64,000 nt of DNA, taken from positions 1-64,000 of IMG/VR virus record IMGVR_UViG_2518285548_000002. One strand, given 5' to 3'. This document shows, one piece after another, positions 2,296-35,235 of the stretch (position 1 is its first letter; each line of letters starts with the position of its first letter). A program made the translations under genes and the position numbers. Origin of the DNA: a virus (taxonomy: Duplodnaviria; Heunggongvirae; Uroviricota; Caudoviricetes). The notes below the pieces were generated by a model. The model was given only the letters and a program-made list of their open reading frames with translations. It had not been told where the DNA came from and searched no databases.

Positions 2296-2296
2296 A

Positions 2297-4069: not shown

Positions 4070-4503
4070 CAGAACTTATCCCTAACACATTTGTCGAGGA
4101 AGGTTTCGCTCATAACGTTGTAGAACGGTGTACCGTTTCCTTTGATAACCTCAACGAAGTAGGTGAAGCTGTTATTCACCCCACACAACTGAGGTGATAT
4201 GCTGACAACCTTCATGGTACGGCTAGACATAGGGTGATCGAACTGGTCTCCTACATGGTACTTAGGACGAGGTACCTTAGCTAGATCATTTAGATCGACC
4301 AGTTGATGCAACTCACTTAACGGATGCATCGAAGGTCGATCATGGTCGCTAATTTTTAGCACAACGTAGTCCTGACCTTCAATCTTCATAAACGATACAA
4401 TCTCGTACTGGACAAACGTAGTAGAGCTACGGTAAACGTCTTCAGCTTGGTACTCAGTACCTTTGTAATAAACACTCATGGTTGTTTTAGCCATGGTTAG
4501 TTT
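4069..4503 (-). CDS. hypothetical protein (start trimmed to internal Met)
   Basis: ORF-track version overlaps upstream gene by 200 nt; internal MKLTMAK start removes overlap. Confidence 0.45.
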   Translation of the reverse strand, partial: KLTMAKTTMSVYYKGTEYQAEDVYRSSTTFVQYEIVSFMKIEGQDYVVLKISDHDRPSMHPLSELHQLVDLNDLAKVPRPKYHVGDQFDHPMSSRTMKVVSISPQLCGVNNSFTYFVEVIKGNGTPFYNVMSETFLDKCVRDKF

Positions 4504-4912
4504 CATCTCCTTGCTCAATAGGTAGTGGATATGTGCAGTCTTGACAAAGCGCTGTGAACTCGCCAGTTGTATTACAATGACACCGTTCGCAGAATGTGAC
4601 TGGTAGTAGGTTCCCAAAGTGGTGTAATTCTCCGTGAGTGTCCCAAATATTAGGATAGGGCTTGGTCTGTATCTCGATAACCTCACCCGTCAGCTTGTTA
4701 AGGCAGGGACGGTTAATTGAGAACCAGGAGTAGTAGTCCTTGGTTGAAAGGACACTATGGGAATCGAATCGGTACAGGATGTCGGTGCCCTTGAAGCGTA
4801 ACAACAAGGGCATTAGCTCATCCTCGGTGATCTCCATAACCTCTCCCCACCTTCCTGCAAATCTTAGGGAGTGGGCGGGGAGGACAAACACAAGGTCACC
4901 GACATTAATCAT
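4487..4912 (-). CDS. hypothetical protein, Cys-rich C-terminus
   Basis: CERCHC..C..C cluster suggests Zn binding. Confidence 0.5.
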   Translation of the reverse strand: MINVGDLVFVLPAHSLRFAGRWGEVMEITEDELMPLLLRFKGTDILYRFDSHSVLSTKDYYSWFSINRPCLNKLTGEVIEIQTKPYPNIWDTHGELHHFGNLLPVTFCERCHCNTTGEFTALCQDCTYPLPIEQGDETNHG

Positions 4913-6582: not shown

Positions 6583-6751
6583 TTACAATTGTATCTGAAG
6601 CTCTAATCCAACGGGCGACATAACCAACCACGGAATATCTCATGGTACCCAAAATGGACTCAGCTTCCCCTTTAACGAGTAAGCCTTGACCAATCTTATT
6701 TCGGTACCGTGCTCCTTTACTGGTCGCACCCGTTATGAGCACGGTTTTCAT
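6572..6751 (-). CDS. small ORF (59 aa) MKTVLITGATSKGARY..., ATGA-coupled to helicase stop
   Basis: Not in ORF track (<60 aa); ATG overlaps TGA of SNF2 gene; N-terminus resembles a Rossmann TGxxxG motif. Confidence 0.35.
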   Translation of the reverse strand: MKTVLITGATSKGARYRNKIGQGLLVKGEAESILGTMRYSVVGYVARWIRASDTIVIGG

Positions 6752-8607
6752 GTAATCATCCTTTCATCAATACCTGCAAGTGACGCTATGATCTGCTTCG
6801 CCACGCCAAGATCGAGGTTGTTGATTCCCTCATCAAGCATGGTTTGAGCCATGGCTTCTTTGCGCTGTAATGTCTCCTGAACATGCTCGTCAATCGTTCC
6901 CTCACACACAAGATAGTAGACCGTCACGGCGTTCTGCTGACCAATACGGTGGGCGCGGGAGAAGGCTTGCTCTACATAAGCAGGTGACCATTCACAGTCA
7001 AGGAAGATAACGTGAGTAGCCTTGGTAAGAGTTAGCCCCTCACGACAAGCAGGTGTACACCCGATGAAAATTTTGCAGTCATTGTCATTCTGGAATCGGT
7101 ATACTTCCTTCTGCCGATCAGATGTCATGGTCTCATCGAGTAGCTTCCTTTTCTGCTCCTCAGGCATGTCGTACCATTCCTGTCTGTACTTTTTCTTCAG
7201 GATACGTACAGCGGAGTTCTCTGTTTTACCGTTGGCATCCACGTCACCATGTATAACCGCAGGTTGGTATTTAGAATACCGTTTTTCAATAAGTTCAACC
7301 ATTGTGCGAAAACGGGAGAATATGATAACTTTTTCCTCGCCACTATCAACCAATTCCTCGATCATCTCATCAAGGGCAAGAAGCTTAGAGCTTGTGTTCT
7401 TACCTGGGGAAACCCCGATTAACTCAATAGAGTCTGTTACTTGCTGAAGTCGTAGTAGCTTGGTTAGTGCTGATGGAATCCTATCTAATGACGTATCCTT
7501 CAATTCCTCCGTGATCTCTTCCTTGACAGCCTGATACAACTTGGACTGAGTAGGGGTCATGCTAAGGTTGATCTTCTTAAATGCTACCTCAGGAAGCTCC
7601 TTGAGCTTGTCCTTCTTACGTCTTCGGAGCATGTTGATCTGAATAAGGTTCTTCAGCTCCATAATATTCTGATAACCCACAATTTCCTTACCATTGAAGC
7701 CACCCATGATAGCGTAGCGGGCTTGGAACTGCCACCAGTTGTAATCCGTTCGTTTACCGAATCTAAGGTAGTTGAAGGACTCAATAGGGCTGTTGGGGAG
7801 TGGTGTGGCGGTCAGAACATAGCGACTGCGAAAGTTAATTCTATGAATCAGGGAACCAATCTTACTATTAGGGTTCTTAATCTTGTGAGCTTCGTCCATG
7901 ACGCAGAATTGAAGTTCCCTATAGTTGTCTAATAGCTCAAGATTATGGATATCACATCTAAAAGTCTCGTAGGACATAATGATGACATCCCAATCTTCAT
8001 CATTGGTTAGTTGGTTGTACAGCTTGGCACGTTGATTAACCGTTCCCGCCATGACAACTGACTTGAGATTAGTGTGCATGTGTATCTCGTCACGCCAGTT
8101 AAATAGCAGACTAGCCTTCGCTAGGACAATTCCGCGCTTTAAATGACCAAGCTTCTTCTTAGCTTCGATGGCATTAGCTACCTGCCAAGACTTCCCGAGT
8201 CCCGCATCATCGGCTAAGATCAGGAAATCCTTGCTAACCATGAGGTTGAACCCTTTGACTTGAAATTCACCCCAAGGGCGTGTCTTGAACCCCCTATGGT
8301 CAATAATCTCTCCATGCTCGTTATAAGTGACTCCGTACCCAGGAACAGTAGGCTCAGAAGGGATGTCGTCTTCACTTATACCGCCGTTGCTTCTTTTTTC
8401 CTCGTCAGTCCAGTTGATTAGGAAGCCACCCATCTTACTTTCAAAATCCTCACGAAATGCGAGAGGGATAGCCCAAACCTTTTGAGCAGGACTGTAGATA
8501 GCCCCTTTAACTTGACTCATTGCATCAACTAGGGTTTTGACGGAGCGAAAAGAAGCCTTAATCCACCATTTACCATCATTGCCTTTAATCTTTTCAGCTC
8601 TTATCAT
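6748..8607 (-). CDS. SNF2-family helicase
   Basis: Walker A DDAGLGKS, DEAH box (VMDEAHKIKN), C-terminal helicase motifs; RBS AGGAGGTG. Confidence 0.85.
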   Translation of the reverse strand: MIRAEKIKGNDGKWWIKASFRSVKTLVDAMSQVKGAIYSPAQKVWAIPLAFREDFESKMGGFLINWTDEEKRSNGGISEDDIPSEPTVPGYGVTYNEHGEIIDHRGFKTRPWGEFQVKGFNLMVSKDFLILADDAGLGKSWQVANAIEAKKKLGHLKRGIVLAKASLLFNWRDEIHMHTNLKSVVMAGTVNQRAKLYNQLTNDEDWDVIIMSYETFRCDIHNLELLDNYRELQFCVMDEAHKIKNPNSKIGSLIHRINFRSRYVLTATPLPNSPIESFNYLRFGKRTDYNWWQFQARYAIMGGFNGKEIVGYQNIMELKNLIQINMLRRRKKDKLKELPEVAFKKINLSMTPTQSKLYQAVKEEITEELKDTSLDRIPSALTKLLRLQQVTDSIELIGVSPGKNTSSKLLALDEMIEELVDSGEEKVIIFSRFRTMVELIEKRYSKYQPAVIHGDVDANGKTENSAVRILKKKYRQEWYDMPEEQKRKLLDETMTSDRQKEVYRFQNDNDCKIFIGCTPACREGLTLTKATHVIFLDCEWSPAYVEQAFSRAHRIGQQNAVTVYYLVCEGTIDEHVQETLQRKEAMAQTMLDEGINNLDLGVAKQIIASLAGIDERMIT

Positions 8608-14160: not shown

Positions 14161-14239
14161 GCTAATCTCTCCTTTACCTTCTCTATACGTGGTATAGGGA
14201 TGGTTGTTTAGTAGCACTCGATAGGTGCTCAAGAAAAAG

Positions 14240-14275
14240 ACCCATCCAATGGTATCGGATGGGTCTCTCTATCAG
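14240..14275 (-). terminator. rho-independent terminator
   Basis: GACCCATCC-loop-GGATGGGTC then TTTTTCTT on minus strand. Confidence 0.6.
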
Positions 14276-14330
14276 CATCTATTCTGTTAAGGGTTACCTA
14301 TGTAGCTACCTAGGGATATTTTTCCGTCTT

Positions 14331-14791: not shown

Positions 14792-15508
14792 TTACTCACC
14801 TTTACCTTTCTGTATTTTGTAGGTCTTAGCTTCCTTAACAGCATCAGGGTCGAGGATGATCTCCTTTTCAGGGAACCATCTTACCTCACCGTTCCTTAAC
14901 CTACGGTGATGACCCTTCCGAGTCCATCTGTGGGTGTGACGTTCATAATCTCTCTTTTCCCGTTCCTCAGTAGGGGATGGGGGAGGGGTGACTACTCTGT
15001 AGGTGGTCTGCCTAATGTATACCGTGCGGTTCTTACTTTTCTTACCTTTAACCTTGCCTTTTTTGATCTTGGGTACCTTGCTCTCTTGCTTCTTAACCTT
15101 AACAGTGTTGTCAGTCATACGTTGCATGACTGCCTTGAATAGGTTGCTGAAGTAACGAGCTATATCGGTTAGCTTATCACGATCACCAGGGTTGCGAGGG
15201 GTGGTTAGGAGAGTGATCTCCGTACCTGAGGTCTTCCACTCAAGGATAAGGTCTTCTACAGGCTTATTCATCTTAAAGTGACCGTTACCTGATTGGTCAT
15301 CCTCAAGGTGAAAGATTATCTCCATATCATCCTTACCACCGTAATCTAGGTTCAAGATACCCCTCAGTAGGGGGTACCTGAAGTTGCTAAGGACTCCAAA
15401 TAGTGCGAATACACTGCTAGTAGCGTAGTTCATCATGTCGTACTTCTTACATAATGCGTCAGCAAACTGACCTTCAATCACGACTTTATCATAGGCTGCC
15501 TTGTCCAT
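14792..15508 (-). CDS. hypothetical protein with basic K/R-rich C-terminal half
   Basis: ORF. Confidence 0.55.
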   Translation of the reverse strand: MDKAAYDKVVIEGQFADALCKKYDMMNYATSSVFALFGVLSNFRYPLLRGILNLDYGGKDDMEIIFHLEDDQSGNGHFKMNKPVEDLILEWKTSGTEITLLTTPRNPGDRDKLTDIARYFSNLFKAVMQRMTDNTVKVKKQESKVPKIKKGKVKGKKSKNRTVYIRQTTYRVVTPPPSPTEEREKRDYERHTHRWTRKGHHRRLRNGEVRWFPEKEIILDPDAVKEAKTYKIQKGKGE

Positions 15509-18455: not shown

Positions 18456-18989
18456 TTACACCAATGTCATTTGCTCGGGCTTATCCGACTTCGATAGGTC
18501 GATAGGTGCTTGGGCAGGTGTCTTAGGTACAGGCTTATATACGTTCAGGTTCATTTTGATGGTCTTAAACAGCGGCAGGTTACTACCTGTCTTGGCGATA
18601 AGAATGTTCTTGCCGCTACCCGACTCACCAAGGTCAGAGGTCAGGTCAACCGCAATAGTCAGCTTAGAACCTGCTACCTTGGCAGTACCACCTGCAAAGC
18701 CGATCTCAGCCTTGGCTCCTTTGAAGTCAATCGCAGGTTCTTCTGCACTCTTAGGCAGAGCCTTGTATACATTCAGGTTGATCTTCACACCGCCCGCACC
18801 GATTGGCATATTGGAACCTGTTTTTGCGATAAGGATGTTCTTGCCGCTACCAGATACGCCCAGGTCTTGCGATAGGTCTACCTCGATGATTGCCTTGTTG
18901 TTAGCTACCGATTTTACGATTACGTTTTCCATGTGTACATTCTCCTTTTTGCCCTCAGTGGGGCTAGTTATTTTGGTGCCTTTAGGCAC
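18456..18989 (-). CDS. hypothetical protein with two tandem ~65-aa repeats (IEVDLS..SGSGKNILIAKTGSN..NLNVYK)
   Basis: Internal repeat; paralogous to 20579..20977. Confidence 0.55.
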   Translation of the reverse strand: MPKGTKITSPTEGKKENVHMENVIVKSVANNKAIIEVDLSQDLGVSGSGKNILIAKTGSNMPIGAGGVKINLNVYKALPKSAEEPAIDFKGAKAEIGFAGGTAKVAGSKLTIAVDLTSDLGESGSGKNILIAKTGSNLPLFKTIKMNLNVYKPVPKTPAQAPIDLSKSDKPEQMTLV

Positions 18990-19032
18990 TCCTTTAGGTA
19001 CCCCACGGGTGGGTGAGGTACCTTAGTAGTGT

Positions 19033-19266
19033 CTAATCCATCAATCTTCTCAGCTCAACTTGTAGTGAGTTCAATCGTCTTCCTTGCTCTCTAAGTTCCC
19101 TCAGCTCTAACTCAACTGCATCTATCTCATCTATGCTAACCTTGCCGTTCATCAATCTATCGGAAAGGTTAGCGATCTTGAAACGATTGCTCTCTATCGC
19201 TTTCTCAAGCAACCCTTGGGTACTTGATAAGATGGAGGTGGATCTATCAAGAGTCATTACACCCAT
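19033..19266 (-). CDS. hypothetical coiled-coil protein
   Basis: ORF. Confidence 0.5.
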   Translation of the reverse strand: MGVMTLDRSTSILSSTQGLLEKAIESNRFKIANLSDRLMNGKVSIDEIDAVELELRELREQGRRLNSLQVELRRLMD

Positions 19267-19852
19267 TTCAGTTCCTCTCCCTCCTGTACCGCCTTGACTA
19301 GGTAGCGTTCGTCATTCTGAATCCAGTGACTCCGATCGTTTTCATCAGGGGTTTCCACATCGACTACATCATCAAACCAATCTTTAAATTTCACACCAAT
19401 CACCTCGGTGAATTAGTAGTGCTCGTAGGCACTCCATGGGGATACCTAACCAGAAGGTTAGATACCCTAGCAGTGTCTAAGATGAGTCACTTGGGCGATA
19501 GTTGACCATAGATATATAGATTCCTGAATGCTAGTCTTCGGGATAGCCTACTAATTGCCACGATCTGCTGAGTCCTTGTGAGCATATTAGGCACCCTTCC
19601 TTTCCTGTTCAGCTATAAGTTGTCTGAGATATTCGATGAGTCCGCCGACTTTGCCAAAGTAAGCCACTATCAATTTAGTCACGCTGATTCCTCCTTGAAT
19701 TTGACACATCTATGCCAACCAGAAACCCAGGATATAAGCACACTCCGTTTAGGTACTAGCAGTACTCATGGGTATGCTTTTTCCTGCACCACCGTACCCC
19801 AAATCGGGGTGGGGCGGGGGGTAGGGCTAGGCATGGTCAGGCACTCAACTCA

Positions 19853-19881
19853 GCTATACGATACAGATATATAAGAGTTAA
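19853..19881 (-). promoter_or_regulatory. promoter-like motif P5 (TTAACT-N17-TATAGC), candidate start of long minus-strand operon
   Basis: rc 19853-19858 TATAGC, rc 19876-19881 TTAACT, 17-nt spacer. Confidence 0.45.
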
Positions 19882-20512
19882 GAGCTTGAACATACCTAGC
19901 CGTGGGTATGGGTAGCCTTCTTGGGCACTCAGGTATACCAATAGGGTAGAGAGTGGGCACCTCAAGCTATCTCCACCACAGCTAGATGGGTAAAGTATGG
20001 TTGACCGTATCATGTGACTACTCACACTGCACTCGGGATTAAAGGGCATGTCTATATAAGCCTGAGCGGTATCCCGTGGGGATGGCTAGGCACACTCATA
20101 CCAAAAGTGGGGCGGGCGGGGGCAGAGTATCCTGTTGGATGCTTACACTCCTATATAAGAGACACCCATCATATAAGAGCATGACACTAGAGAAGGAAGC
20201 TATAAGAGAGACTGCCGAGGTATCGGTCACCATCATGGATAGACTTCACCCGTGACTCGTACTTGCCTATGCAGTCTCATACCCGCTACATATTAGCCTT
20301 CTAGGTACACTCCTAGACGTACCCTTGTGGGTACAGAAGTACTAGGCTTCGCTTTCTCTGCTCAAGCTCTCGGTTGGTGCGTGGTGTGTGAAGTGGTAAT
20401 AACTTAGACCCAAATTGCGGCTGTTGAACTGACTTCTTTATATAGGAATAGCGGCTCATTGGATTATTGGCTAATTCCACAACATCACATAATACGGATT
20501 ATGTGCAATAGG

Positions 20513-20575
20513 CTCCTAGGTCTGCCACTCATGGGCTAGTCAGGACTACCCAAGCATAGGCATGGGTAGGTCTTG
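20513..20575. repeat. left arm of ~40-bp inverted repeat flanking gene 20579..20977
   Basis: AGGTCTGCCACTCATGGGCTAGTCAGGACTACCCAAG; its rc matches 20993-21055. Confidence 0.6.
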
Positions 20576-20578
20576 ATA

Positions 20579-20977
20579 TTAGTTAGTGCCTTGCATCGCT
20601 TTGAACTGCTTGAATGCTTGGAACTCAGCCCAAAGTTTAGCATCTTCCTCGCTCATGGTAGGTACACTGGTAGCAGGTGTAGCAAGTTCTTGTACTGGTG
20701 AAACATACTCGTCAATAGGGATATAGGCGTTCAGGTTCAAGACTACATTCTGAAAGCCTTCCTTTTTCAAGCGAATACCGCCTAAAGTAGATGCTACGCG
20801 GGCAGACTTCTCGCTTTGTGTGAGAACTTCCTTATCAATCACGTTCAAATCAACCTCAATAATGAGCTTGTTTTTGTCGTTCACGCTTATTTTCATGTTC
20901 TCAGGTGCCTTCTTTGATTGCGCTCGTTTAGCCGCTTCCTTCTCGAATTTAGGCATAGTGATAGCTTTGTTTATCAT
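20579..20977 (-). CDS. hypothetical protein, single-repeat paralog of 18456..18989
   Basis: Shares IIEVDL...GFQNVVLNLNAY motif. Confidence 0.55.
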   Translation of the reverse strand: MINKAITMPKFEKEAAKRAQSKKAPENMKISVNDKNKLIIEVDLNVIDKEVLTQSEKSARVASTLGGIRLKKEGFQNVVLNLNAYIPIDEYVSPVQELATPATSVPTMSEEDAKLWAEFQAFKQFKAMQGTN

Positions 20978-20992
20978 GGATAATCAGTCTCC

Positions 20993-21055
20993 TTTGGTGT
21001 GGTTTGACTACCTTTGGTAGTCCTGATTAGCCCATGAATGAACAGACCTCTAGCA
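20993..21055. repeat. right arm of inverted repeat
   Basis: GGTAGTCCTGATTAGCCCATGAATGAACAGACCT. Confidence 0.6.
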
Positions 21056-21908
21056 TAGCAAGGCATCTGTAACCACCGAACCAGTCGGCTCTCGCACCTT
21101 GTACTATGCACGTCATAACGCAGACGTATTGCGTGATATCCTCGCCATGTTGGGCATGAACTGTAAAGCGTAGGCTGTTGCCATAGTTCAATCCGTCATG
21201 TCACACACATAAGTGTGGCAAGAGAAGTTGCGTATCCCATGCACATGTAGTGCATGTTTCGGGTATCGAGTTGTCAAAGGACGTGAGACACATTTCGTGC
21301 CTTGCCACATGTCTTGCATTCGAGTTGTTACTCGTTCGAGTCGTTCGTGGCGACCGATTCGACACCCATATCTAAGAACGCAATAGAGTCGGATTGCAAT
21401 ACCTCTTGAACAGGTTTTTTTATAAAAAATAAAATCAAACAGAAGTCAAAATCGTACTCCCCCCAGTGTCTTGGTTTTTTCAATGATTCCGAATCGGCGC
21501 ACGGAGTGTCATGATACATATGGGAAATTTTTAGTGAACCTTGATGCGCGATAGGTCTTTTCTAAAGGGGGTGTCTCGTGAGGTCTCGGATGGTGCGAAA
21601 GGGGAAAGGAAATTGTCTTGGAGAAATGTTTTGGGGCGAGGGTGGCGGGGTCTTTGGCAAGGGGGATTGGTAAGGTGTTGGGAGAGGGGAAGGGCAAATT
21701 GAAAGAGAGTCGTTCCTCTTATATAAGGAAAGCGACTCTCTTGGGGGAGCAGGGAATTTTTTGTGGAACCTTGGTGCGGTACGGTTCCGTGATTGTTACG
21801 ATGTTACCTTACTTTATATGTATTATACGTTTTTCCGCTACGCGGATTACTGTTATGTTCGGCAGGGCGCACTTCCCTAGCATAGGTACGAGCGTGATCA
21901 GACCGTTG

Positions 21909-22187
21909 CTATCTGTTTTGAGGTTCACCTTTGTCAAATACCTTGCTTACTACTCCTAGTGCGAACCCTAAGGCGGCGGCTACAAGCCAACCCTGCTTAC
22001 CGTTTTCTTCATCTATTAGATACTCCAAAGCTCCTAAGTAAGCAAGAGCCACACCGATCAGAATGCAAGATATGAAGCTAGTTGCAGGATACGAGTGGGT
22101 GAATGCCGCTATTAAAATGAATATAATGATTCCAATTGCGATTGTCATGTTACACCTACTTACTCGAATATTTAGATAGCTCGCCAT
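21909..22187 (-). CDS. small membrane protein (2-3 TM)
   Basis: Hydrophobic segments; overlaps end of SLH protein gene. Confidence 0.5.
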   Translation of the reverse strand: MASYLNIRVSRCNMTIAIGIIIFILIAAFTHSYPATSFISCILIGVALAYLGALEYLIDEENGKQGWLVAAALGFALGVVSKVFDKGEPQNR

Positions 22188-22953
22188 TATCCTTTAGGTG
22201 GTTGTACAGGCGATGTAATATGGTCACGGCTTCAGCCCTGGTGACCTGATCGGCGGCTTCAAATTCTCCATTATATGTTGTCATGATACCGTGCTGTTGA
22301 AGGGATGCCACTTTCGGGGCAACAACTTCCGTGTAATCGTCAAAGATTTTCATAGTACCATTGTCTAAGTAGTCAATTACGAAAGGGAATACAGTGTTGG
22401 TCATATCGACTCCATACATGTATCTGTTGTCATCGTAGTTATCGGAGACTACGATCTTGAAGTCTTGCATCTTGGAGACTCTCTTATACGCTTCGTCTAA
22501 AGAAATTGGACTGTAAACTTCAGGCAGAAGGTTCACGACCCCCATTCTTGTAAGTTCTTTATCAGGATCGAACACCTTACCTTCCTTTGTATAGTAAGAG
22601 AAGTTCCCAGTATCCATCATTGGTGCCATGTCGTAGATCGCAGTGTACGCCCAGTAATTCTTCGGGACATCAATGAATTTGTCCACAACTAGCTCCTGTG
22701 ATCTGTACTTGTCAAATAGCTTGTGAGTCATCGAGATAAACTCGGCTTTGGTGACTTTCTCATCAGGCTTGAATGTCCCGTCCGAGTATCCCGTGACTAC
22801 TCCTTTCTCGGTCATGAAGCTGATGGAACTGATCGCCCACGAGTGTTGGGTCTCACTCACATCTTTGAAATTGGAGGTCTGTGCGCTTGCGGCAGTGGAG
22901 CCGATAAGCAGTGATGAAGCTAGTGTTATCGCTAGTACAATCCTCTTCTTCAT
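22156..22953 (-). CDS. secreted SLH-domain protein
   Basis: Signal peptide MKKRIVLAITLASSLLIGSTAASA; SLH motifs (..GYSDGTFKPDEKVTKAEF.., ..ADQVTRAEAVTIL..). Confidence 0.7.
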   Translation of the reverse strand: MKKRIVLAITLASSLLIGSTAASAQTSNFKDVSETQHSWAISSISFMTEKGVVTGYSDGTFKPDEKVTKAEFISMTHKLFDKYRSQELVVDKFIDVPKNYWAYTAIYDMAPMMDTGNFSYYTKEGKVFDPDKELTRMGVVNLLPEVYSPISLDEAYKRVSKMQDFKIVVSDNYDDNRYMYGVDMTNTVFPFVIDYLDNGTMKIFDDYTEVVAPKVASLQQHGIMTTYNGEFEAADQVTRAEAVTILHRLYNHLKDNGELSKYSSK

Positions 22954-23237
22954 AGTTACTACCTGCCTTTCTTATGATGTTTCCCCATATTAGCATAGAA
23001 CGATTTGATTCGTATATACGAGACAATACACGATAATCCACCTATAGGAACCTATAGCATCGTCCACTGCTAGGAGCGTACTACAGACTTCCATCGTCCC
23101 CCTTAAAACACAAATTCCCTTCTCATCAGAATCTAAGATATTTATTACATAATTTAACTACTATTTACAAATATATACATTTAAGGTAATATGTTAAGAA
23201 ATATCACGTTTTATTAATTTTCTGGAAGGGGATTTGT

Positions 23238-24524
23238 ATGGACGAAATTTTAACTTCCACAACATTGGGGGAACTGATAAAGAAGAAAAGAGAGGATTTA
23301 GGTATTAGTTTGTCTGAGGTTTCCAGAAAAACTGGCATTAGCAAGGGAGGGATTTCCAAGATTGAAAATGGTGAAACAAAAGGACCAGAGCTGGCTACTT
23401 TAAAGCCAATTGCCGATGTTTTAGAAATCCCTTATGAGGAAATAATTGAATATTGCATCAGGGCAGAATATCGTTATGATGTCTACGATGATCTCTTGGA
23501 AGAAGCCATAGAAATTGCTAACCCTTCTTTGATTGATAAAGTGGCAATCAAATTCCTAGAAAATATTAAGCATGAAACAGATTCAGCGCTGGAGCATTTG
23601 GAACGATTTGCAGATTCCAGCACAAACAACGATACAAAGGTAACGCTCTATAACACAATTGTGAAGTACTCTAGACAGCATGGGCTACCACATTACATAG
23701 CTAAAGGGTTATATCAAAAATACTTAATTGAGAGACAAAATTTAAAACGTTTGGAAGAATCCTTTAGAGATGGTGAAGAAATCACTCACTATGTTGATTT
23801 TTTATCTGATAATGAAAAGATAACATATTACTTTAAAATGGCTTTACATGCTCATAATACTAAAAAATATAATGAGTGTATCGAGTATTGTGAAGCAGGT
23901 CTTAGACTAGATGTTTCAAGCAACGAGTTGAAGGCTAGAGCTTATTTATCTATGATAAATTCCTATGGTTTCCTGAAAAATTACGATATGGCAGAGTACC
24001 ATCTGGACTTTTTAGAAAAATACGGATTTGAGTTCGTTTCCGATTCATGTAAAATTACTAGAGCTATTATACAAGGGAAAAGGAAACATTTCAGTATAGC
24101 TATTCCAGCACTAAGAAAATGCTATGAAGTGGTACAAAGTGACTTGAAGATACATGTAATCAATGAATTATTAGATTTGTATCTTCAGGAGAGTGATTCT
24201 ACTTCGATTGAAGAAATTTTTAACCTTGAGCCAGAATTTCTACCTCAAAATCCAACAACTCCTTATAAAAAAATAGCTATCGGTAAATACTTCCAGTATA
24301 AAGGGAATTATTTGACCAAAAATTGCATATTTAATGAAGGAGCAAGATCATATTTACTAAGCTTAAAGACATTTGGAGCTGTTTATGCAATTCAAGAACT
24401 TGCAGAATGCATGACCGAATTTTTAGCTTTGTTTACAGCAAATTCTAAATCAATGGATTTGGAATATGTTGTAAGACTAAAAGAGGTGTATACTGATATT
24501 GCAAACAAAAAGGAGGGGTTATAA
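23238..24524 (+). CDS. RNPP-family regulator (N-terminal XRE HTH + TPR-like helical repeats; AimR/NprR/PlcR-like)
   Basis: HTH LGISLSEVSRKTGISKGGISKIENGET; long helical C-terminal region; coupled downstream peptide gene. Confidence 0.7.
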   Translation: MDEILTSTTLGELIKKKREDLGISLSEVSRKTGISKGGISKIENGETKGPELATLKPIADVLEIPYEEIIEYCIRAEYRYDVYDDLLEEAIEIANPSLIDKVAIKFLENIKHETDSALEHLERFADSSTNNDTKVTLYNTIVKYSRQHGLPHYIAKGLYQKYLIERQNLKRLEESFRDGEEITHYVDFLSDNEKITYYFKMALHAHNTKKYNECIEYCEAGLRLDVSSNELKARAYLSMINSYGFLKNYDMAEYHLDFLEKYGFEFVSDSCKITRAIIQGKRKHFSIAIPALRKCYEVVQSDLKIHVINELLDLYLQESDSTSIEEIFNLEPEFLPQNPTTPYKKIAIGKYFQYKGNYLTKNCIFNEGARSYLLSLKTFGAVYAIQELAECMTEFLALFTANSKSMDLEYVVRLKEVYTDIANKKEGL

Positions 24525-24525
24525 T

Positions 24526-24669
24526 TGAGAAAAGCATATGGAATGTTGATGTTGTCGTTAGCCTTAGTGATGACTCTAGGCATTACAGCAAATACTGAAA
24601 CTGCAAGTGCTAAAGAATTAAATTCTCCGCAAAAAGCTCAATCTTATTTTGTTGATCCTGGTCATTAAT
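24526..24669 (+). CDS. secreted signalling pro-peptide candidate (47 aa, TTG start)
   Basis: AAGGAGGGG RBS; signal-peptide-like MLMLSLALVMTLGITA; starts 2 nt after regulator stop. Confidence 0.5.
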
Positions 24670-24696
24670 TCAATTGTTTTATCCTCAAATAAAAAA

Positions 24697-24730
24697 GAGA
24701 GCGCTAAATAAATAGCGTTCTTTTTTTTTG
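24697..24730 (+). terminator. rho-independent terminator
   Basis: AGCGCTA-loop-TAGCGTT followed by T9. Confidence 0.55.
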
Positions 24731-24972
24731 TGAAAATTTTATTGCTCATCATAAATATAGTTAGAACGTTTCCTCGAAAAAAAAATAGGGGGATTCCCCT
24801 AAACGGATGGTAAAATAATCAATAACAGGAAAAAGGAGGGATTTAGTTAATTGGTATCAGTTAAACAACGGGGTGTCCCAACGGTCGCTAAACTAATTGG
24901 AACACCCCGCTTTGATCAACTAAAAACGTTGTTCAGAAAAATTATATCATCGAATTAAAGGAGGAAAAAGCA

Positions 24973-25158
24973 TTATTTCACTGTCTGAAAATGATTTATT
25001 AAAGTCTTTTGAAGACCTCCAGCAAAAATTAGTAGAACTATATCGTACAGAAGGTTCATTTTTAAGTCCAACAGTGTTGCAAATAAGTCAACAACTAGAC
25101 GAATATATTGTCGCAATTCAGAAGATGGCAAAAAATCTAAATGAATGTCGAGACTAGA
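24973..25158 (+). CDS. Spo0E-like small protein, apparent AUU start
   Basis: SQQLDEYI matches Spo0E family signature; no ATG/GTG/TTG in frame after upstream TGA; GGGAGG RBS 7 nt before ATT. Confidence 0.4.
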
Positions 25159-25249
25159 ATAGACTGTACGGAAGCCCTTGCGATATATGAATAGCCGTTT
25201 TTAGCTATTCGAAGTCCGACAGACCTTTAAATTAGGAGGAAATGCACGA

Positions 25250-25810
25250 ATGAGAAAAAAACTAAAGATTGCAATTGTTACTACTTTATCATGTGTATCT
25301 CTTTTTTCTGCTGTAGCATATGCTGATTACGGCAAGAAATATCTGTTTACGGGAGGGTTACGGGCTTCAGATGTTAAGAAAATCAAGTATGTAATAGCTG
25401 GCGGAAGTTCTTCCTATCAAAGAAATGTAATGAAAGCTGGAGTTGAGGCTTGGAACGGAATTTCATCAAAGGTTAAGCTAACTGAGGGTAACTCTGGTGC
25501 AAAAGTGAGTGTGATACTCACAAATGCTGATAATGATGATTTATATGGGATTATGATGCCATTTAGCAATGGAGCTAGAGATTATGATCTAGATGAAATT
25601 TGGGACAACATAGATGTTATTGGATATGACAATACTCTATCGAGAATTGGGCTTAGCGAACAAAGGGGCGTATTTACTCACGAGATGGGACATGCATTGA
25701 GTTTAGCACATAATAACTCAGACTCAGATTTGATTATGCACCCATATGCATTAAGTACAGATATTCAGACAGATGATGAGAAAAATCTGAAGTTGAAGTG
25801 GGGGAAATAG
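25250..25810 (+). CDS. secreted zinc metalloprotease (HExxHxxxxxH, matrixin/snapalysin-like)
   Basis: Signal peptide; THEMGHALSLAHNN. Confidence 0.7.
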   Translation: MRKKLKIAIVTTLSCVSLFSAVAYADYGKKYLFTGGLRASDVKKIKYVIAGGSSSYQRNVMKAGVEAWNGISSKVKLTEGNSGAKVSVILTNADNDDLYGIMMPFSNGARDYDLDEIWDNIDVIGYDNTLSRIGLSEQRGVFTHEMGHALSLAHNNSDSDLIMHPYALSTDIQTDDEKNLKLKWGK

Positions 25811-25813
25811 TTA

Positions 25814-26401
25814 ATGAGCATGAAAAAACTGGCAGGAACAATTGTTTGTTCGGTTGCATTGGTTGCTGGTGGCTTTTACTTTTTGACGCCATCTAAAATT
25901 ATGAAGGTCGAGGCTAAAGTAGTAGGTTACAAAAATGTCGAAGCGTTAGAAAGGGGAGCAGATTATATTGTAGTAGGACATCTTGAAAGGGACTTCTCAG
26001 AATATGAGCCAACCTTTAAATATACTTCAGAGGGAAGAGTTGGAGAATTCTATACAAAAACTGATATCATCATTGATAAAACCCTCAAAGGAGACGCTGA
26101 TACAAAGGTTATTCCTGTCCTTCAAGCCGCCGCCTATGTAGAAAGCTCTTTTAAATATCAAGCCGATTTAGAAACAATAGAGGGTTTTACACCTATGGAA
26201 AAAGGAAAAGAGTACCTTCTGTTCTTAAAAAAGGCTCATGACGGTGAAAACTATAGTTTGTTAGGTGTATACCAAGGCAAATTTGATATTGATGAGTCTG
26301 ATAAGGTACAAGGGTTAGCATCAGAGAATAGCCACTATCAAAATTTGAGAGATGAAGTAGTGGAAAAATATAAAGATATTTTCGAAAAGTCAGTTCCATA
26401 A
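25814..26401 (+). CDS. secreted/membrane-anchored hypothetical protein
   Basis: N-terminal hydrophobic anchor. Confidence 0.6.
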   Translation: MSMKKLAGTIVCSVALVAGGFYFLTPSKIMKVEAKVVGYKNVEALERGADYIVVGHLERDFSEYEPTFKYTSEGRVGEFYTKTDIIIDKTLKGDADTKVIPVLQAAAYVESSFKYQADLETIEGFTPMEKGKEYLLFLKKAHDGENYSLLGVYQGKFDIDESDKVQGLASENSHYQNLRDEVVEKYKDIFEKSVP

Positions 26402-26425
26402 AGTTGAGACTTAGGGGGAAGTAAT

Positions 26426-26626
26426 ATGCAAGCTTGGGCTGATTCCGACCCTATTGATTGTACACAGCTTCAAAGGGACAAGAAAAAGGTTCAGAGAGCA
26501 ATTGACTTTGAAAAGTCACTGGAAGGTAAGCGTCTTACAGGAGAAAGTCCCCAAAACAAAAATCAAACAGGAGTGCTTTTGTATGACAGCGCTAAAGAAA
26601 CTTGCAACCAGTCCAATACGGGCTGA
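26426..26626 (+). CDS. possible small ORF (66 aa) with strong RBS, overlaps start of next regulator
   Basis: GGGGGAAG RBS before ATG. Confidence 0.3.
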   Translation: MQAWADSDPIDCTQLQRDKKKVQRAIDFEKSLEGKRLTGESPQNKNQTGVLLYDSAKETCNQSNTG

Positions 26627-28016
26627 GATCGAACACCATCTCAAATCATATAACTACACGCTTAGTAAGCTCAGTGAATTGACCAATATCAATACTGGTC
26701 ATCTAAGTGGGTATTTGAAGGGACATAAGTATAGGAAACTAACACTTGACCAATTGAATGCAATTGGACAAGTGTTTGAAAAACCTGATGGGTGGTTATA
26801 CGATTTATACGTTGAGGAATACTTCTATAGAGTAAAAATTACTCTCAGACGAGCGAAATCATTTCTGGTGCAATGTGCAGAATTAGGGAGATATGATTGT
26901 ATTCAGTTGGTAATTCCTCTACTCTTGGAACACCCTGATAAAATTAAAATTTTTTTTGGTGTAGCAGAACAGTTGTTTTACAAAGGGAGACAGAAGGAGT
27001 CCATCTTTTTTTACCAATTAGTGGTCGATAACGAAAAAAATATGTTCAAAGAACCAATCATCATGAGTCACTACCGGCTATTTCAACTCTCAGAGAGCAC
27101 AAACACCGAGGCACTATGGAAGGCTGTTCTTATTTTTGAGCCTGTTCGGAGGGAACTGTCTATATATTGCCAATTGGATGCGCTTTTACGACTAGGAAAT
27201 CATTGTTGTACATTGCGTAGATGGAAAGAGGTAGAGAAATTTGCGGACGAACTTTTAGAACTTACTAATTTGGTTTACAAAGATGAGCTGTCTAAGAAAA
27301 AGAGGGGAAATGGTGACGGAATAGAACTGCTTAATCTTGAGAGTCATTTGGTCGCTTACTATGGTCAGGGCTATCTTTTAAAAGCAGTATCTTTAGAGAA
27401 ACAAGGGCTGTATGAAGAAGCCAAGGAATTTGTTTCTGGTTATGCTGATCTGAGCTGGTTTGAACTACTTGACGAGTCTGGACAGGCAGAGGTAGCTAAA
27501 TATAAGAAATTAGCGTTGCTTAACATGTGTAGGCTAGATCTCCTCATGGGAGATACAAGTATACTTCCTGACTTTGTGGAATTCCTTGAATATAACCCAA
27601 CAGAATTATTGTTTGGTTTTATAACAATCGTGGAATCAGCCAACAAGTATGGATTTTCAATAGACATCATACTAGACAAGTTCTCGAAGGAGATTAACTA
27701 TTTTGATAATTACCATGATTCAGCCAATGTAGATCGACATCTACAATTTAGGTATCAGTTAGCTGTTTACCATTTAAAAAATAAGCGCCCTAACAGTGGT
27801 ATCAAAGAAATATTAAGATGCATGACTTTATCTACTGTATTGAATGGCAGTAAAGATTTCATACGATGCGTAGCACTATTTGAAGCGCATAGATACCAAG
27901 CATCAGCTCATCAGGAAATAGAATACAAAAAAAAATTGGAGGAGGTGATGCGTGATGAAAGATTAATTGGACGCTCCCAACCCCTCAGTAAGGAACGTCC
28001 AACAGTAAAACATTGA
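26583..28016 (+). CDS. HTH-domain regulator with long helical (TPR-like) C-terminal region
   Basis: Start trimmed to MTALKK (AGGAGTG RBS); HTH LSKLSELTNINTGHLSGYLKG. Confidence 0.6.
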   Translation: MTALKKLATSPIRAEIEHHLKSYNYTLSKLSELTNINTGHLSGYLKGHKYRKLTLDQLNAIGQVFEKPDGWLYDLYVEEYFYRVKITLRRAKSFLVQCAELGRYDCIQLVIPLLLEHPDKIKIFFGVAEQLFYKGRQKESIFFYQLVVDNEKNMFKEPIIMSHYRLFQLSESTNTEALWKAVLIFEPVRRELSIYCQLDALLRLGNHCCTLRRWKEVEKFADELLELTNLVYKDELSKKKRGNGDGIELLNLESHLVAYYGQGYLLKAVSLEKQGLYEEAKEFVSGYADLSWFELLDESGQAEVAKYKKLALLNMCRLDLLMGDTSILPDFVEFLEYNPTELLFGFITIVESANKYGFSIDIILDKFSKEINYFDNYHDSANVDRHLQFRYQLAVYHLKNKRPNSGIKEILRCMTLSTVLNGSKDFIRCVALFEAHRYQASAHQEIEYKKKLEEVMRDERLIGRSQPLSKERPTVKH

Positions 28017-28276
28017 AGTATTGTAACTATCTTAGCACAAAATGATTGCGATTTACAAAAATTCACAAAACTTTTAAAAGAATTAGACACTAGTTGGTCG
28101 ATATGAATAGGCTGTACGGGAAACTTTACAAAGCCCAATAGGGGGAATAATTATAAAGCCGTGTTCCAGCTATTCTTTGAAGACGACTAAAATTCCCCAT
28201 TATAAACGCTGATCTTCACAAGATGATGAAGTAAATATTTGTAATTTTTTAATCAATTTGGTATATTATAGAAGGA

Positions 28277-28930
28277 GTGTTATGTATGAAAAAGGAAATA
28301 TTAACTGGAGTATTATCCGTAACCTTGTTATCAACGGGTATCATTCCAGCAGTAGCTTCAAATAACATTGACTCTAATCTGTCGATCGAACAAAAAAACC
28401 AATATGTTCAAGCGGAGATGGACAAAGAAGGACTCTCCTTGTTAGCAGGTTTAAAAGTTGACATGGGGCAATATGTCACCTTGGGTAAAGATAATTTACT
28501 ACATCTCGATCCTGAAGCTAAGGAACTGATTGGTGAGAAAGCGTATAGTATTTTCGAGCGTGGCGTTAAGACAATCAATGACGCTTTAAACAGCGGAGAA
28601 TATCAAATACAAAATAACAAATTAGTAAAAACAGACCTAGTACATCCTCAATTTGATCACGAAGAATTTTGGTGGGGAATATCACTGCAATACAATAATA
28701 GAGAAACAAAAGAACTTGCCGCTTTGTGTGAAGAATATTCTACTGATTGGTCATTAGCGTCAGCACTTACTGGCTTGGTTCCAGGTGGACAAAGTATAGG
28801 TATTGCTTCAGCAATTATGTCATGGGGAAACGCAAAATTTGCAAGAAAACTTACTAGCAAAAATAAGGGGAAAGGTGTAAACGTCGATATAGCTTGGGTA
28901 CCAGTAGTTATCTCGATCTATGGTAGGTAG
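28277..28930 (+). CDS. secreted hypothetical protein
   Basis: Signal peptide; strong promoter TTGTAA-N17-TATATT and RBS AGAAGGAG. Confidence 0.6.
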   Translation: MLCMKKEILTGVLSVTLLSTGIIPAVASNNIDSNLSIEQKNQYVQAEMDKEGLSLLAGLKVDMGQYVTLGKDNLLHLDPEAKELIGEKAYSIFERGVKTINDALNSGEYQIQNNKLVKTDLVHPQFDHEEFWWGISLQYNNRETKELAALCEEYSTDWSLASALTGLVPGGQSIGIASAIMSWGNAKFARKLTSKNKGKGVNVDIAWVPVVISIYGR

Positions 28931-28970
28931 TAATTACTTATAGAGATAGCTGGAAGGAGAGAGTTATACT

Positions 28971-29123
28971 ATGGTGTCTTTTTTGACAGCTGTCGTCCTG
29001 TTTAGTCTATTAGGTTACCTATATTTCAATTCTGAAGTAAACCCAATGATACTGATCTTATTAGGGATATCAGCTTCCGTAAATGTGTATCGTGGGTTCA
29101 AAGAATTAAAGAAAAAATCGTAG
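28971..29123 (+). CDS. small hydrophobic membrane protein (50 aa)
   Basis: GGAAGGAGAGAG RBS; not in track. Confidence 0.4.
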   Translation: MVSFLTAVVLFSLLGYLYFNSEVNPMILILLGISASVNVYRGFKELKKKS

Positions 29124-33387: not shown

Positions 33388-33416
33388 TCTATACGAAAGA
33401 ACCTACTGAGAGTTAA
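33388..33416 (-). promoter_or_regulatory. promoter-like motif P4 (TTAACT-N17-TATAGAG), no obvious minus-strand gene downstream
   Basis: Direct repeat of P3 (CTCTATACGA-N10-TGAGAGTTAAGG). Confidence 0.35.
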
Positions 33417-33431
33417 GGACGGTGAACATAA

Positions 33432-35135
33432 ATGGGTGATTTTTTAGGGAACTTGATGGACGACTTCATAAATCTTGCGGAAGGTAATATTCAGAAAACA
33501 GGTATTTGGCGGGAGGAGCCTGTTGATCTAATAACCTTTTTCTCATCTAAGGACTTCTGTAACGAGAAGCCATACCCTGGTAAGCAGACTGAGCTTTTAG
33601 AGAAGTGCAATTCTATCTTATGGTACAAGATGACAGGTGACGAAAAGCTGTGCGCTGAAGACCTCAGACAGATCACAGAGCTTGTTGTGATGTTTGGTAA
33701 GGGGTCGGGCAAGGACTTCCTGGCATCGGGTATCTTGGCTTACGTAGGCTACCTTCTGTGCTGTATGAACGACCCTCAGGATTACTTCGGCTTTGGTCAG
33801 GATGAGAATATCGACCTTGTAAACGTGGCAATTAATGCCTATCAAGCAAACAACGTATACTTCAAGAAGCTGAAGGCGCGTCTGAACAATTGTCCATGGT
33901 TCAAGAGGGTTTCTTCTGAACCTAAAGCTTATAATGAGTTCCAACTCACTAAGAACCAAATCCGATTCTACAAAAACATTACAGCTCACAGTGCCCACTC
34001 AGAAGCAGATTCATTTGAGGGATACAATCCTCTCGTTATTATCTTTGACGAGATCGCGGGTTTCGAGTACGACAAGGCTGAGGACGCTTATGCGACTTTC
34101 CGTTCCTCCGCTCTCTCTCGTTATGAGAGTAAGGCTTTTATGATTTTCATTTCGTTCCCGCGTTCCCAAGACGACTTTATGTTCAAAAAGTACGAAGAGT
34201 ATCTGCAAGGAGACCCTGAGGTTTATGGTATGATCGGGAAGACGTGGGAGGTAAACACATCCAAGAGTCAAGCTTCCTTCAAGAAGGACTATGACCGAGA
34301 CCCTGAAGGCTCTATGATGAAGTATGAGTGTATACCTCCGAAATACAAAGAAGGTCTATTCCAGTTTCCTGAACGAATTGACGAGGTTATCAAGGTTGGG
34401 AAGCAGTCGCAATGTCCTAACCTTGTTGTACAGACTAAAATTTCCACACGCACCCTCCAAAACGGTGTAGAGCGCCACTTCCTTGGTCTTGAGTTACATA
34501 ATCTTGCACTAGACCCTAGCTTCACCTACTACCTTGGTGGTGACGGGGGTGTAGAAACAGACTCCTACTGTATCTCTCTATTCCACGCGGAGCCTACGAT
34601 TATTCAGATAAATGAGGGTGGAGGGATAATTGAGAAGTGGGTTAATAAGCCTGTAGAAGACCTTATCCTTGAGTGGAAGCCTTCCAAGAAGGAGAGGCTA
34701 CCTGTTGATCTCCTGAACGTAGCAGAGGTACTTGAGATGATCTGTCAGCAAGTGCATGTTAAGAAGGCAATTTTCGATAAGTTTAACTCCGCAGATGTCG
34801 TTCAGCGGCTCATGCAGTACGGGGTTGAAGCCGAGGACAAGAACTGGTCTAATCCGTTCCAATTGCAAATCTACACCAACCTCAAGGGTTTGATCTATAC
34901 GGGGATGATTGAGCTTCTTGACCATGTAATCCCTGAGGATACTCACATGAACGCCAATGAGGAGCTACGTAACCTCAAGCTTATTAATGGGAATAAGATT
35001 GACCACGACAAGGACAAAACTAAAGACTTCTCCGATGCCCGTGCAGGAGCTACTTGGATTTGTTCCATGGATGAAGTCGAGTCAACTGAGCACTTTGCTA
35101 TGCCAGTAATCCAAGGAGCACGTAGAAAGTCGTAG
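33432..35135 (+). CDS. terminase large subunit
   Basis: Walker A GKGSGKD, ATPase + nuclease-like C-terminal region, size 567 aa. Confidence 0.8.
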   Translation: MGDFLGNLMDDFINLAEGNIQKTGIWREEPVDLITFFSSKDFCNEKPYPGKQTELLEKCNSILWYKMTGDEKLCAEDLRQITELVVMFGKGSGKDFLASGILAYVGYLLCCMNDPQDYFGFGQDENIDLVNVAINAYQANNVYFKKLKARLNNCPWFKRVSSEPKAYNEFQLTKNQIRFYKNITAHSAHSEADSFEGYNPLVIIFDEIAGFEYDKAEDAYATFRSSALSRYESKAFMIFISFPRSQDDFMFKKYEEYLQGDPEVYGMIGKTWEVNTSKSQASFKKDYDRDPEGSMMKYECIPPKYKEGLFQFPERIDEVIKVGKQSQCPNLVVQTKISTRTLQNGVERHFLGLELHNLALDPSFTYYLGGDGGVETDSYCISLFHAEPTIIQINEGGGIIEKWVNKPVEDLILEWKPSKKERLPVDLLNVAEVLEMICQQVHVKKAIFDKFNSADVVQRLMQYGVEAEDKNWSNPFQLQIYTNLKGLIYTGMIELLDHVIPEDTHMNANEELRNLKLINGNKIDHDKDKTKDFSDARAGATWICSMDEVESTEHFAMPVIQGARRKS

Positions 35136-35149
35136 ATGCTTTAGTGCGA

Positions 35150-35235
35150 TAAAATCCTGTTTTTTGGGATATTAAATCCTATTTTTTGGGACGTGAAATC
35201 CTGTTTTTTGGGACATGAAATCCCAAAATTTGAGC
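35150..35235 (+). repeat. three tandem ~22-bp direct repeats (AAATCCTGTTTTTTGGGAC) plus one inverted partial copy
   Basis: Directly visible downstream of terL stop. Confidence 0.7.

Follow-up and report, generated by a model that had tools for sequence, protein, structure and literature searches.

A conserved noncoding region with repeated hairpins and an embedded promoter motif among the leftward genes of a Brevibacillus prophage

Genes and conserved blocks of the region

The window analyzed here, 64,000 nt of a Brevibacillus prophage, belongs to contig KB894295.1 (160 kb, assembly GCA_000374385.1). The genes at 1-22953 are on the minus strand, and a divergent regulator with helix-turn-helix (HTH) and TPR motifs begins at 23238. 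The interval of interest, 19270-20578, is therefore internal to a leftward operon, and the minus strand is the natural one on which to read it. An earlier note on this interval saw no convincing open reading frame (ORF) in it, described degenerate repeats, a palindrome, two G-run blocks and a copy of a promoter motif (P5), and suggested either an origin-like iteron region or a structured leader or noncoding RNA (ncRNA) of the operon. The interval proves to have two parts. The note's description holds for 19684-20578, a conserved part of 0.9 kb that is noncoding and has no codon periodicity. It fails for 19257-19682, where the left third of the interval is coding and consists of three small genes (a 48-aa ORF and two conserved micro-ORFs) and one intergenic hairpin module.

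Relatives were found through homologues of the 132-aa protein encoded next to the region (20579-20977, minus strand). A 132-aa protein of the same sequence is attributed to Brevibacillus laterosporus and is also present on contigs of >1 Mb, and the TerL of the window has 50% identity to the large terminase of Brevibacillus phages Jenst and SecTim467. No match to the window was found at the nucleotide level by megablast and blastn in phage and plasmid collections, nor to the 132-aa protein by tblastn against phages, nor by pattern scans of metagenomes for relatives, nor in a scan of genome contigs with block E (below). The region is carried by four lineages, namely the window, L007 (97% nucleotide identity), L001/L011 (a Paenibacillus-associated 112-kb viral contig) and L012, and in part by L013; a remnant in P. 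thiaminolyticus, L010, was also recovered. The hosts of the lineages carrying the 0.9-kb part are Brevibacillus and Paenibacillus.

Across 19684-20578, the mismatch is 29% to L001 and 25% to L012, with 10-19% in the conserved blocks. Sorted by codon phase, the mismatches number 82/77/86 for L001 and 74/74/71 for L012, which is without three-base periodicity. The coding sequence of the 132-aa protein has 23% mismatch overall and 53/106 at third positions (~50%). Since the noncoding part differs less than the third codon positions and shows no periodicity, we read it as noncoding and constrained, more conserved than synonymous sites. Comparison with relatives, a check proposed in the earlier note, shows the 0.9-kb part to be conserved; of its 6 TATAAG boxes, only 2-3 are kept across lineages. 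Conserved blocks A to E are separated by variable spacers, one of which has an extra small ORF in L001 and L013:

20481-20560: block A, conserved
20261-20400, minus strand: block B, sequence conserved in five lineages; contains the palindrome at 20319-20334
20121-20170, minus strand: block C, conserved
19781-19990, minus strand: domain D, conserved
19684-19720, minus strand: block E, identical in all four lineages; contains the hairpin TTGGCATAGATGTGTCAA (19701-19718) and a Shine-Dalgarno sequence

Two further ORFs were rejected as genes. A 70-aa ORF at 19837-20049 has, as the alignment reads, 13 amino acid changes from ~17 nt differences and loses its N-terminal frame. A 22-aa ORF after P5 does not conserve its frame, and its changes are mostly nonsynonymous.

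The repeats reported in the earlier note are present far above chance. Counting the plus strand of 19684-20578 against an expectation computed from the remainder of the window, there are 8 copies of CACTC (0.7 expected), 6 of TATAAG (0.2), 3 of TATATAAG (~0) and 8 of GGGTA (1.3). No such excess is seen for their reverse complements (GAGTG 1, CTTATA 0), and therefore the motifs are strictly oriented, all in the one direction of the genes on the minus strand. All 4 copies of TATAAGAG in the window fall in 19870-20208. The copies are degenerate, with CACTCATGGG exact only once, at 20526. The palindrome GTACCC-TTGT-GGGTAC is found at 20319-20334, and the G-run blocks are exactly where the note had placed them (19806-19826 and 20107-20123).

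A long noncoding stretch with oriented repeats could be a replication origin, with TATATAAGAG and CACTC repeats as iterons binding an initiator and with the palindromic hairpin D2 (below) or the G-runs aiding unwinding or priming. The palindrome is long and has an AT-rich centre. The GC-skew check suggested in the note does place the cumulative minimum near 19-20 kb, but the turn is produced by local C-runs. Allowing <=1 mismatch, no TTATCCACA-like DnaA box occurs in 19270-20578, and window-wide counts equal chance. Tandem Repeats Finder (TRF) detects no array, and the TATAAG boxes, besides being poorly kept across lineages, are spaced irregularly at 137/185/99/18/30 nt. There is no AT-rich stretch, the GC content in 100-nt windows being 0.38-0.52. 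Compensatory changes that preserve imperfect, bulged 25-bp hairpins would be unexpected of iterons, and none of the replication genes adjoins the region; the SNF2 helicase, for example (6748-8607), is >10 kb off. An origin of replication is therefore very unlikely, and the iteron suggestion is not sustained.

The left third contains the following genes:

19587-19682, minus strand: micro-ORF1, 31 aa; GTG start; Shine-Dalgarno AAGGAGG at 19690-19696; conserved
19487-19585/19594, minus strand: micro-ORF2, 33-35 aa; ATG at 19585 or GTG at 19594; good ribosome-binding site (RBS); conserved
19257-19403, minus strand: 48-aa ORF; GAGGTG RBS; matches part of a 118-aa gene in L007

Judged by their conserved frames and the bias of substitutions to third positions, both micro-ORFs encode proteins. 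Substitutions relative to L001 at codon positions 1/2/3 number 6/5/16 in micro-ORF1 and 12/7/22 in micro-ORF2, and relative to L012 they number 6/6/20 in micro-ORF1. The 48-aa ORF overlaps a 77-aa ORF (19033-19266) by 10 nt, and the two jointly have 95% DNA identity to the single 118-aa gene of L007, and this points to a frameshift, a pseudogene or an error in the sequence of the window.

Hairpins, the P5 motif and the module between cistrons

The structural features of the noncoding part, with the long stem around the adjacent gene, are as follows:

21011-21048, minus strand: 5' arm of a long-range inverted repeat; outside 19270-20578
20519-20554, minus strand: 3' arm of the same repeat, which brackets the 132-aa gene
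20148-20180, minus strand: two CTCTTATAT boxes of block C, 18 nt apart; the second is kept in L001 and L012
20107-20124, minus strand: C-run 2, the second G-block of the earlier note
19902-19979, minus strand: hairpin D1, ~23 bp, irregular; the inner part follows the module plan (CACUC, small hairpin, GAGUGCC)
19825-19901, minus strand: hairpin D2, ~27 bp, imperfect; P5 in its apex; 4 pairs with compensatory change
19853-19881, minus strand: P5, with -35-like TTAACT at 19876-19881, a 17-nt spacer and -10-like TATAGC at 19853-19858 within CGTATAG
19783-19826, minus strand: hairpin D3 with C-run 1, ACCCC-GATTT-GGGGT plus outer pairs; the other strand of the G-block at 19806-19826
19752-19767, minus strand: box2-like hairpin GAGTACTGCTAGTACC; stem GUAC/GUAC becomes GUGC/GCAC in L001 and GUGC/GUAC (G.U) in L012

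Base pairing has been maintained through sequence change. Over the 60 pairs of domain D, 97.9% of cells are paired, compared with 27-41% in slid controls, and 6 pairs have changed on both sides versus 2.3+-1.0 in shuffles (0/500), a control that overstates significance for related sequences. The three-way identity of D1 is 80-90%. The long-range duplex around the whole 132-aa gene (the 37-bp stem below) has 36-38 bp and a folding energy of -55 to -61 kcal/mol in four lineages, among which there are compensatory and U.G-to-C-G changes. The fold of block B is weakly supported, and the GTACCC palindrome is lost in L001. A global fold of the whole region was tried and rejected; the local hairpins alone are supported.

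A further possibility is that the 0.9 kb, or at least its 0.7 kb upstream of P5, makes up a large structured ncRNA in its own right, GOLLD/ROOL-sized and of a new class. Such an RNA would be processed from the operon and act in trans; its ~8 GAGUG boxes or its C-rich tracts might, for example, serve to sequester an RNA-binding protein of host or phage as a decoy or sponge. The size, the conservation above neutral, the lack of coding signal, the many hairpins with some covariation, the oriented short repeats and the prophage setting would all suit such an RNA, and the flanking long stems could release it. However, a search of Rfam 15 (including GOLLD, ROOL, OLE, riboswitches and introns) gave one tRNA in the window at gathering score and no other family, and even at E<=5 nothing credible in 18900-22200. 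The supposed RNA would have no dedicated promoter or terminator of its own, and there is an active-looking promoter inside it. Its middle third is poorly conserved and tolerates insertion of a 190-250-nt ORF and other indels, and beyond the local hairpins it has no supported global fold. We consider a stand-alone RNA unlikely.

The G-runs could alternatively form DNA G-quadruplexes (G4) on the template (plus) strand, just downstream and ~270 nt upstream of P5, and modulate transcription or replication. The G4 prediction that the earlier note recommended does single out the first block: 19806-19830 has the highest G4Hunter score in the 64 kb, 2.60, and 20106-20130 scores 1.80. The canonical motif of four runs (at least 3 G each, with loops of 1-7 nt) at 19806-19826 is present in the window, L007 and L001, but L012 has three runs only at both sites, and the second block is canonical only in L007. 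The G-runs are C-runs on the transcribed-sense strand, and therefore an RNA G4 is excluded. As part of a conserved hairpin, the C-run forms the 5' arm opposite a G/U-rich partner, and similar C-run/GU-run hairpins occur in other intergenic modules, so that the composition is explained without a G4. We give a DNA G4 function hardly any weight.

P5 belongs to a family of promoter motifs. The pattern TAAC-N16-CGTATAG has 5 copies in the window, all on the minus strand, where 0.13 would be expected; the one at 19854-19880 confirms the promoter copy named in the earlier note. P5 is conserved in the relatives, with the hexamers kept in L012 and the spacer altered. It alone of the copies is embedded in a hairpin, with folding z scores of -6.6 to -7.5 (-6.6 in the window) versus +0.1 to -1.9 for the other window copies. 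A scan of 19270-20578 with a TTGACA-17-TATAAT-like consensus found no sigma-70-like promoter, and no intrinsic terminator was found inside the region. A sigma-54 reading of TTGGCATAGATGTGTC was discarded since, read from the sequence, the -12 GC is out of register. Identity with the published promoter-like motif of Jenst was also discarded, TTAAC-N16-CGTATAG being absent from 40-90 kb of Jenst. Elsewhere in the window, a copy at 33389-33415 (minus strand) points leftward from a 90-nt gap that separates two rightward genes and immediately precedes the large terminase gene; an antisense transcript could result.

The predicted leader of a P5 transcript is ~165 nt, C-rich and structured, and holds the box2-like hairpin and block E. 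RNA started at P5 would lack the 5' arm of D2 and therefore must fold differently; in partition-function folding, the 3' arm of D2 can pair with block E. An anti-Shine-Dalgarno role for the C-runs was rejected because, in all four lineages, the leader leaves the Shine-Dalgarno sequence of micro-ORF1 more accessible than its shuffled versions do (probability unpaired 0.45-0.91 versus 0.25-0.35). The alternative offered in the earlier note, a structured leader or ncRNA of the operon, holds in substance: the region is conserved and noncoding, its hairpins show compensatory changes, and its last ~165 nt are the predicted P5 leader.

The inner plan of D1 recurs in a module of 60-90 nt, with stems of ~19-25 bp, in the intergenic gaps of the operon. 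Copies start on the minus strand at 14290, 17082, 18455, 19036 and 19480, and there are more in the relatives. The unit in the left third of the interval is laid out as follows:

19415-19480, minus strand: module unit w19; box1 TTAGACACTGCT, a 12-bp variable hairpin, box2 GGAGTGCCTAC, box3 GAGCACTAC

Over 14 units, box1 (UAGACACU) pairs with box2 (AGUGCCUA) around the variable hairpin in 97.6% of cells, with 4 covarying pairs. Box3 is a repeat of box1, and the alternative pairing of box2 with box3 holds in 94.3% of cells, with 2 covarying pairs; the two helices are mutually exclusive. Read from the sequence, the stop codon of the upstream gene is in or next to box1. One copy, 14189-14290, has a true U-tract terminator hairpin followed by the boxes and then a variant of the promoter motif. 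It alone of at least 5 module copies joins a U-tract hairpin with a promoter, P5 being inside a hairpin and not after one. Gene cassettes are exchanged at the modules: L007, 97% identical to the window, has an extra 127-aa gene between two module copies where the window has one copy, and the junction falls in box1. This position points to a role in cassette exchange like that of the PeSL cassettes of T4-type phages (below). The CACTC..TGGG, GGTAYCC and G-run repeats of the earlier note are therefore pieces of the stems of module-like hairpins, seen on the other strand.

The exclusive helices raise the possibility of a translation-coupled RNA switch. A ribosome at the box1 stop codon would melt box1:box2 and free box2 for box3, deciding cleavage, stability or downstream expression at every cistron junction; and the gene-free array upstream of P5, together with the dif-like palindrome described in the next section, would be a dedicated large regulatory RNA/DNA element by which a plasmid-like prophage selects whether its replication operon is expressed by read-through or from P5. 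We regard this combined proposal as speculative and of low probability.

The dif-like palindrome S1 and neighboring features

Block A contains a dif-like palindrome, S1, of which a partial copy, S2, lies elsewhere in the region:

20482-20509, no strand assigned: S1, ATTGCACATAA-TCCGTA-TTATGTGATGT, a 28-nt, 11-6-11 dif-like palindrome that can form an 8-bp RNA hairpin
20005-20017, minus strand: S2, TCACATGATACGG, an inverted copy of one S1 arm plus the centre; 13/13 match in L001

S1 has the characteristics of a dif-like site, namely two 11-bp arms with dyad symmetry, a centre in the 6-8-bp range and conserved inner-arm bases. S1, with S2 as inverted partial partner, could be the core site of an Xer-type tyrosine recombinase acting on DNA, whether to resolve dimers of a plasmid-like prophage, to integrate, to invert the 470-bp S1-S2 segment or to exchange cassettes. 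With its 11-6-11 layout, S1 equals E. coli dif at 19/28 positions and Idiomarina dif at 20/28, including CATAAT and ATTATGT (dif sequences from PMC2731167). It is unchanged over 34 nt among five lineages whose flanking sequences diverge, and the 13 nt of S1 that recur inverted in S2 are exact in L001. The small-ORF cassette of L001 and L013, absent elsewhere, begins directly after S1. The Jenst-like phages have ParM and a small integrase, and related elements are found as plasmid prophages (PMC4909266, PMC8725734). A 21-mer of S1 also occurs twice, inverted and ~240 bp apart, beside an Xer-like recombinase in a metagenome-assembled genome, L014; but a single 21-mer match in 1.2e12 positions is near chance (~0.3 by our estimate).

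Against a recombination site, there is no recombinase gene in the 64-kb window, and only one full site, S2 being without a second arm. The relatives are all colinear with no inverted isoform seen, and the cassette junction lies outside both arms of S1 and not in the central region. S1 is equally able to form its 8-bp RNA hairpin, and a recombination site would account for only ~30 of the 900 nt. The known dif/cer/psi sites (PMC5357621, PMC2731167) share with S1 the 11-6-11 architecture, the partial dyad symmetry and the inner-arm CATAA / TTATG, besides the 19-20/28 matches to proteobacterial dif. They differ in the central 6 bp (TGTATA, versus TCCGTA in S1) and in outer arm bases, and S1, unlike those systems, shows no sign of accessory sequences and has neither a second site nor a nearby recombinase; it is a candidate site. 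We rate Xer-type recombination as improbable on the present balance. S1 is the piece that fits an RNA-level picture least, and such a DNA-level function is a serious rival there.

L014 is an unrelated GC-rich Bacillota genome. Its identical 22-bp palindromes, GCACATAATCCGTATTATGTGC at 4309-4332 and 4571-4594, are inverted, ~240 bp apart, and sit between the Xer-like tyrosine recombinase gene and an HD-GYP-type gene, as in an invertible switch.

A second long gene-free stretch (20978-21908, minus strand) precedes the 132-aa gene and is conserved in blocks in five lineages. It holds a CATGCAC...GTGCATG hairpin, the loop of which is enlarged by an insertion in L013 and L010. Near 21400-21450 it also has an AT-rich TTGACT...TATAAA stretch, a candidate for the operon promoter. 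At 21560-21750, the minus strand is very C-rich and G-poor, rut-like, with plus-strand GC skew reaching +0.78 at 21600-21699. In the same segment, the full palindrome CTCTTATATAAGAG is enclosed by a perfect hairpin, GAGAGTCG...CGACTCTC, and the TATATAAGAG boxes of 19270-20578 resemble half-sites of that palindrome. A ~55-aa domain (KL.IEVDL...GSGKN.LIAKTG...LNLN.Y.P) is common to the 132-aa protein and both halves of a 158-aa protein (18456-18932, minus strand). Neither this domain nor the 132-aa protein has a match in Pfam, PHROGs, NCBIfam or PDB sequences, and the AlphaFold model of the 132-aa protein (pLDDT 53.6) is too poor for a fold search.

The divergent regulator is a 428-aa protein (23238-24524, plus strand) with an N-terminal HTH_3 and a TPR match below the Pfam gathering score; by these matches it is possibly an RRNPP/AimR-like peptide-sensing regulator. 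Its gene opens a low-GC block (0.32-0.40; 23000-29000). In L010, a homologue of the regulator directly adjoins the upstream noncoding block.

Three other features of the window were recorded. Directly downstream of the large terminase gene, 35152-35232 consists of ~3.5 tandem copies of a 22-nt unit, AAATCCTGTTTTTTGGGAyrTg, with a possible role in packaging or regulation. An inverted repeat of 52 nt (87% matched) joins 15217-15268, in a minus-strand 238-aa gene, to 34644-34695, in the plus-strand terminase gene; the two genes, although unrelated, therefore contain this sequence in the same sense. At 805-3534 (minus strand), adjacent genes for a nicotinamide/nicotinate phosphoribosyltransferase-like protein and a ribose-phosphate pyrophosphokinase resemble a phage NAD+ salvage module. 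Such modules have been linked to the countering of NAD-depleting defence.

Reading of the region and comparison with known systems

At a probability of roughly 0.5, our preferred reading is that 19684-20578 is a conserved noncoding boundary between two transcription units of the leftward operon, that of the 132-aa gene and that of P5, and carries an array for RNA processing or stability. Transcription through the upstream 132-aa gene would enter the region, and the read-through RNA would fold into a chain of long irregular hairpins that are copies or relatives of the module found further down the operon. In each module, box1 would pair with box2 around the variable hairpin, with box3 offering box2 an alternative partner. 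By analogy with known early regions, the long stems and the 37-bp stem around the 132-aa cistron would probably be cut by a double-strand-specific nuclease, for example host RNase III, or would stabilize ends. Either would uncouple the cistrons as in T7 and SP82. The next unit would begin at P5 in the apex of D2, and its RNA, having lost the 5' arm of D2, would leave the RBS of micro-ORF1 open behind the C-rich leader. The same modules would double as recombination points for gain and loss of gene cassettes. The hairpins have the form that RNase III-type processing calls for: D1, D2, the modules and the 37-bp stem are irregular stems of at least ~20 bp in intercistronic positions, and their pairing has been kept in 3-4 lineages.

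Several points weigh against this reading. An array of ~700 nt is far longer than known processing sites require. With only 3-4 independent lineages, the power of the covariation analysis is low, and the shuffle control is a generous one. In block B and the middle of the region, sequence is conserved but support for a structure is weak, and L001 does without the GTACCC palindrome. P5 departs from the sigma-A consensus in that its -10 lacks the invariant final T. The invariance of S1 suits recognition by a sequence-specific protein better than a mere stem. Finally, the plus strand has a mirror fold of the same stability (-66.3 vs -66.0) and the same G.U count. Assigning the strand from wobble counts was tried and dropped, G.U versus A.C being symmetric and uninformative; the gene orientation, the one-way motifs and the direction of the promoter favour the minus strand for the structure.

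The region is in no curated family tested, and the closest known systems each match it in part. The RNase III hairpins of T7 (R0.3-R1.3) and of Bacillus phage SP82 (Panganiban & Whiteley 1983, cited in PMC4838370) are likewise irregular 20-30 bp stems with internal loops between early cistrons, repeated on a common plan of sequence and structure. The 37-bp stem resembles those flanking the 16S and 23S rRNA precursors, where B. subtilis RNase III cuts stems that flank a whole RNA (PMC4838370). Unlike those of T7 and SP82, the modules here have a three-way covarying box1/box2/box3 arrangement with the form of a switch, overlap the upstream stop codon, and are stacked without intervening genes, one hairpin having a promoter in its apex; cleavage here is inferred.

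The PeSL promoter-terminator cassettes of T4-type phages (PMC2839356, PMC4122927) are also short conserved intergenic stem-loops with promoter motifs, repeated through a variable early region, and they are points of homologous exchange for cassettes. The 127-aa gene indel bounded by two modules is the counterpart here, with the indel junction of close relatives falling in the repeat as in PeSLs. In contrast to PeSLs, the modules have a different sequence, host phylum and promoter type, most copies lack a promoter or U-tract, and PeSLs are not known as gene-free arrays of ~0.9 kb. The Jenst/SecTim467 promoter-like motif (PMC4909266) comes from a related phage group and is also bipartite and repeated in gaps upstream of early/replication genes. 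A phage sigma factor was proposed as its reader (PMC4909266). The motif here is a different one, as its absence from 40-90 kb of Jenst indicates, and no recombinase or sigma-factor homologue was found in the 64-kb window.

The region would then be a variant of intercistronic processing hairpins and composite promoter/stem-loop cassettes in an unstudied phage group, unusual for its three-way covarying boxes, its promoter in a hairpin apex and its gene-free array of modules. Gene expression in the large temperate or plasmid-like phages of Brevibacillus and Paenibacillus is almost unstudied, and this locus provides a concrete map of a lineage-specific promoter motif, a reusable RNA hairpin module at cistron junctions whose covarying helices exclude each other, a 37-bp stem around one gene and a promoter buried in a hairpin. 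If the modules are signals for processing or stability, the T7/SP82 paradigm would extend to a new group, and they would be compact parts for engineering Firmicutes operons. Their link to cassette gain and loss is a second example of PeSL-like plasticity, this time outside the T4-type phages. As to how such elements are maintained or rearranged, the invariant dif-like site offers a starting point.

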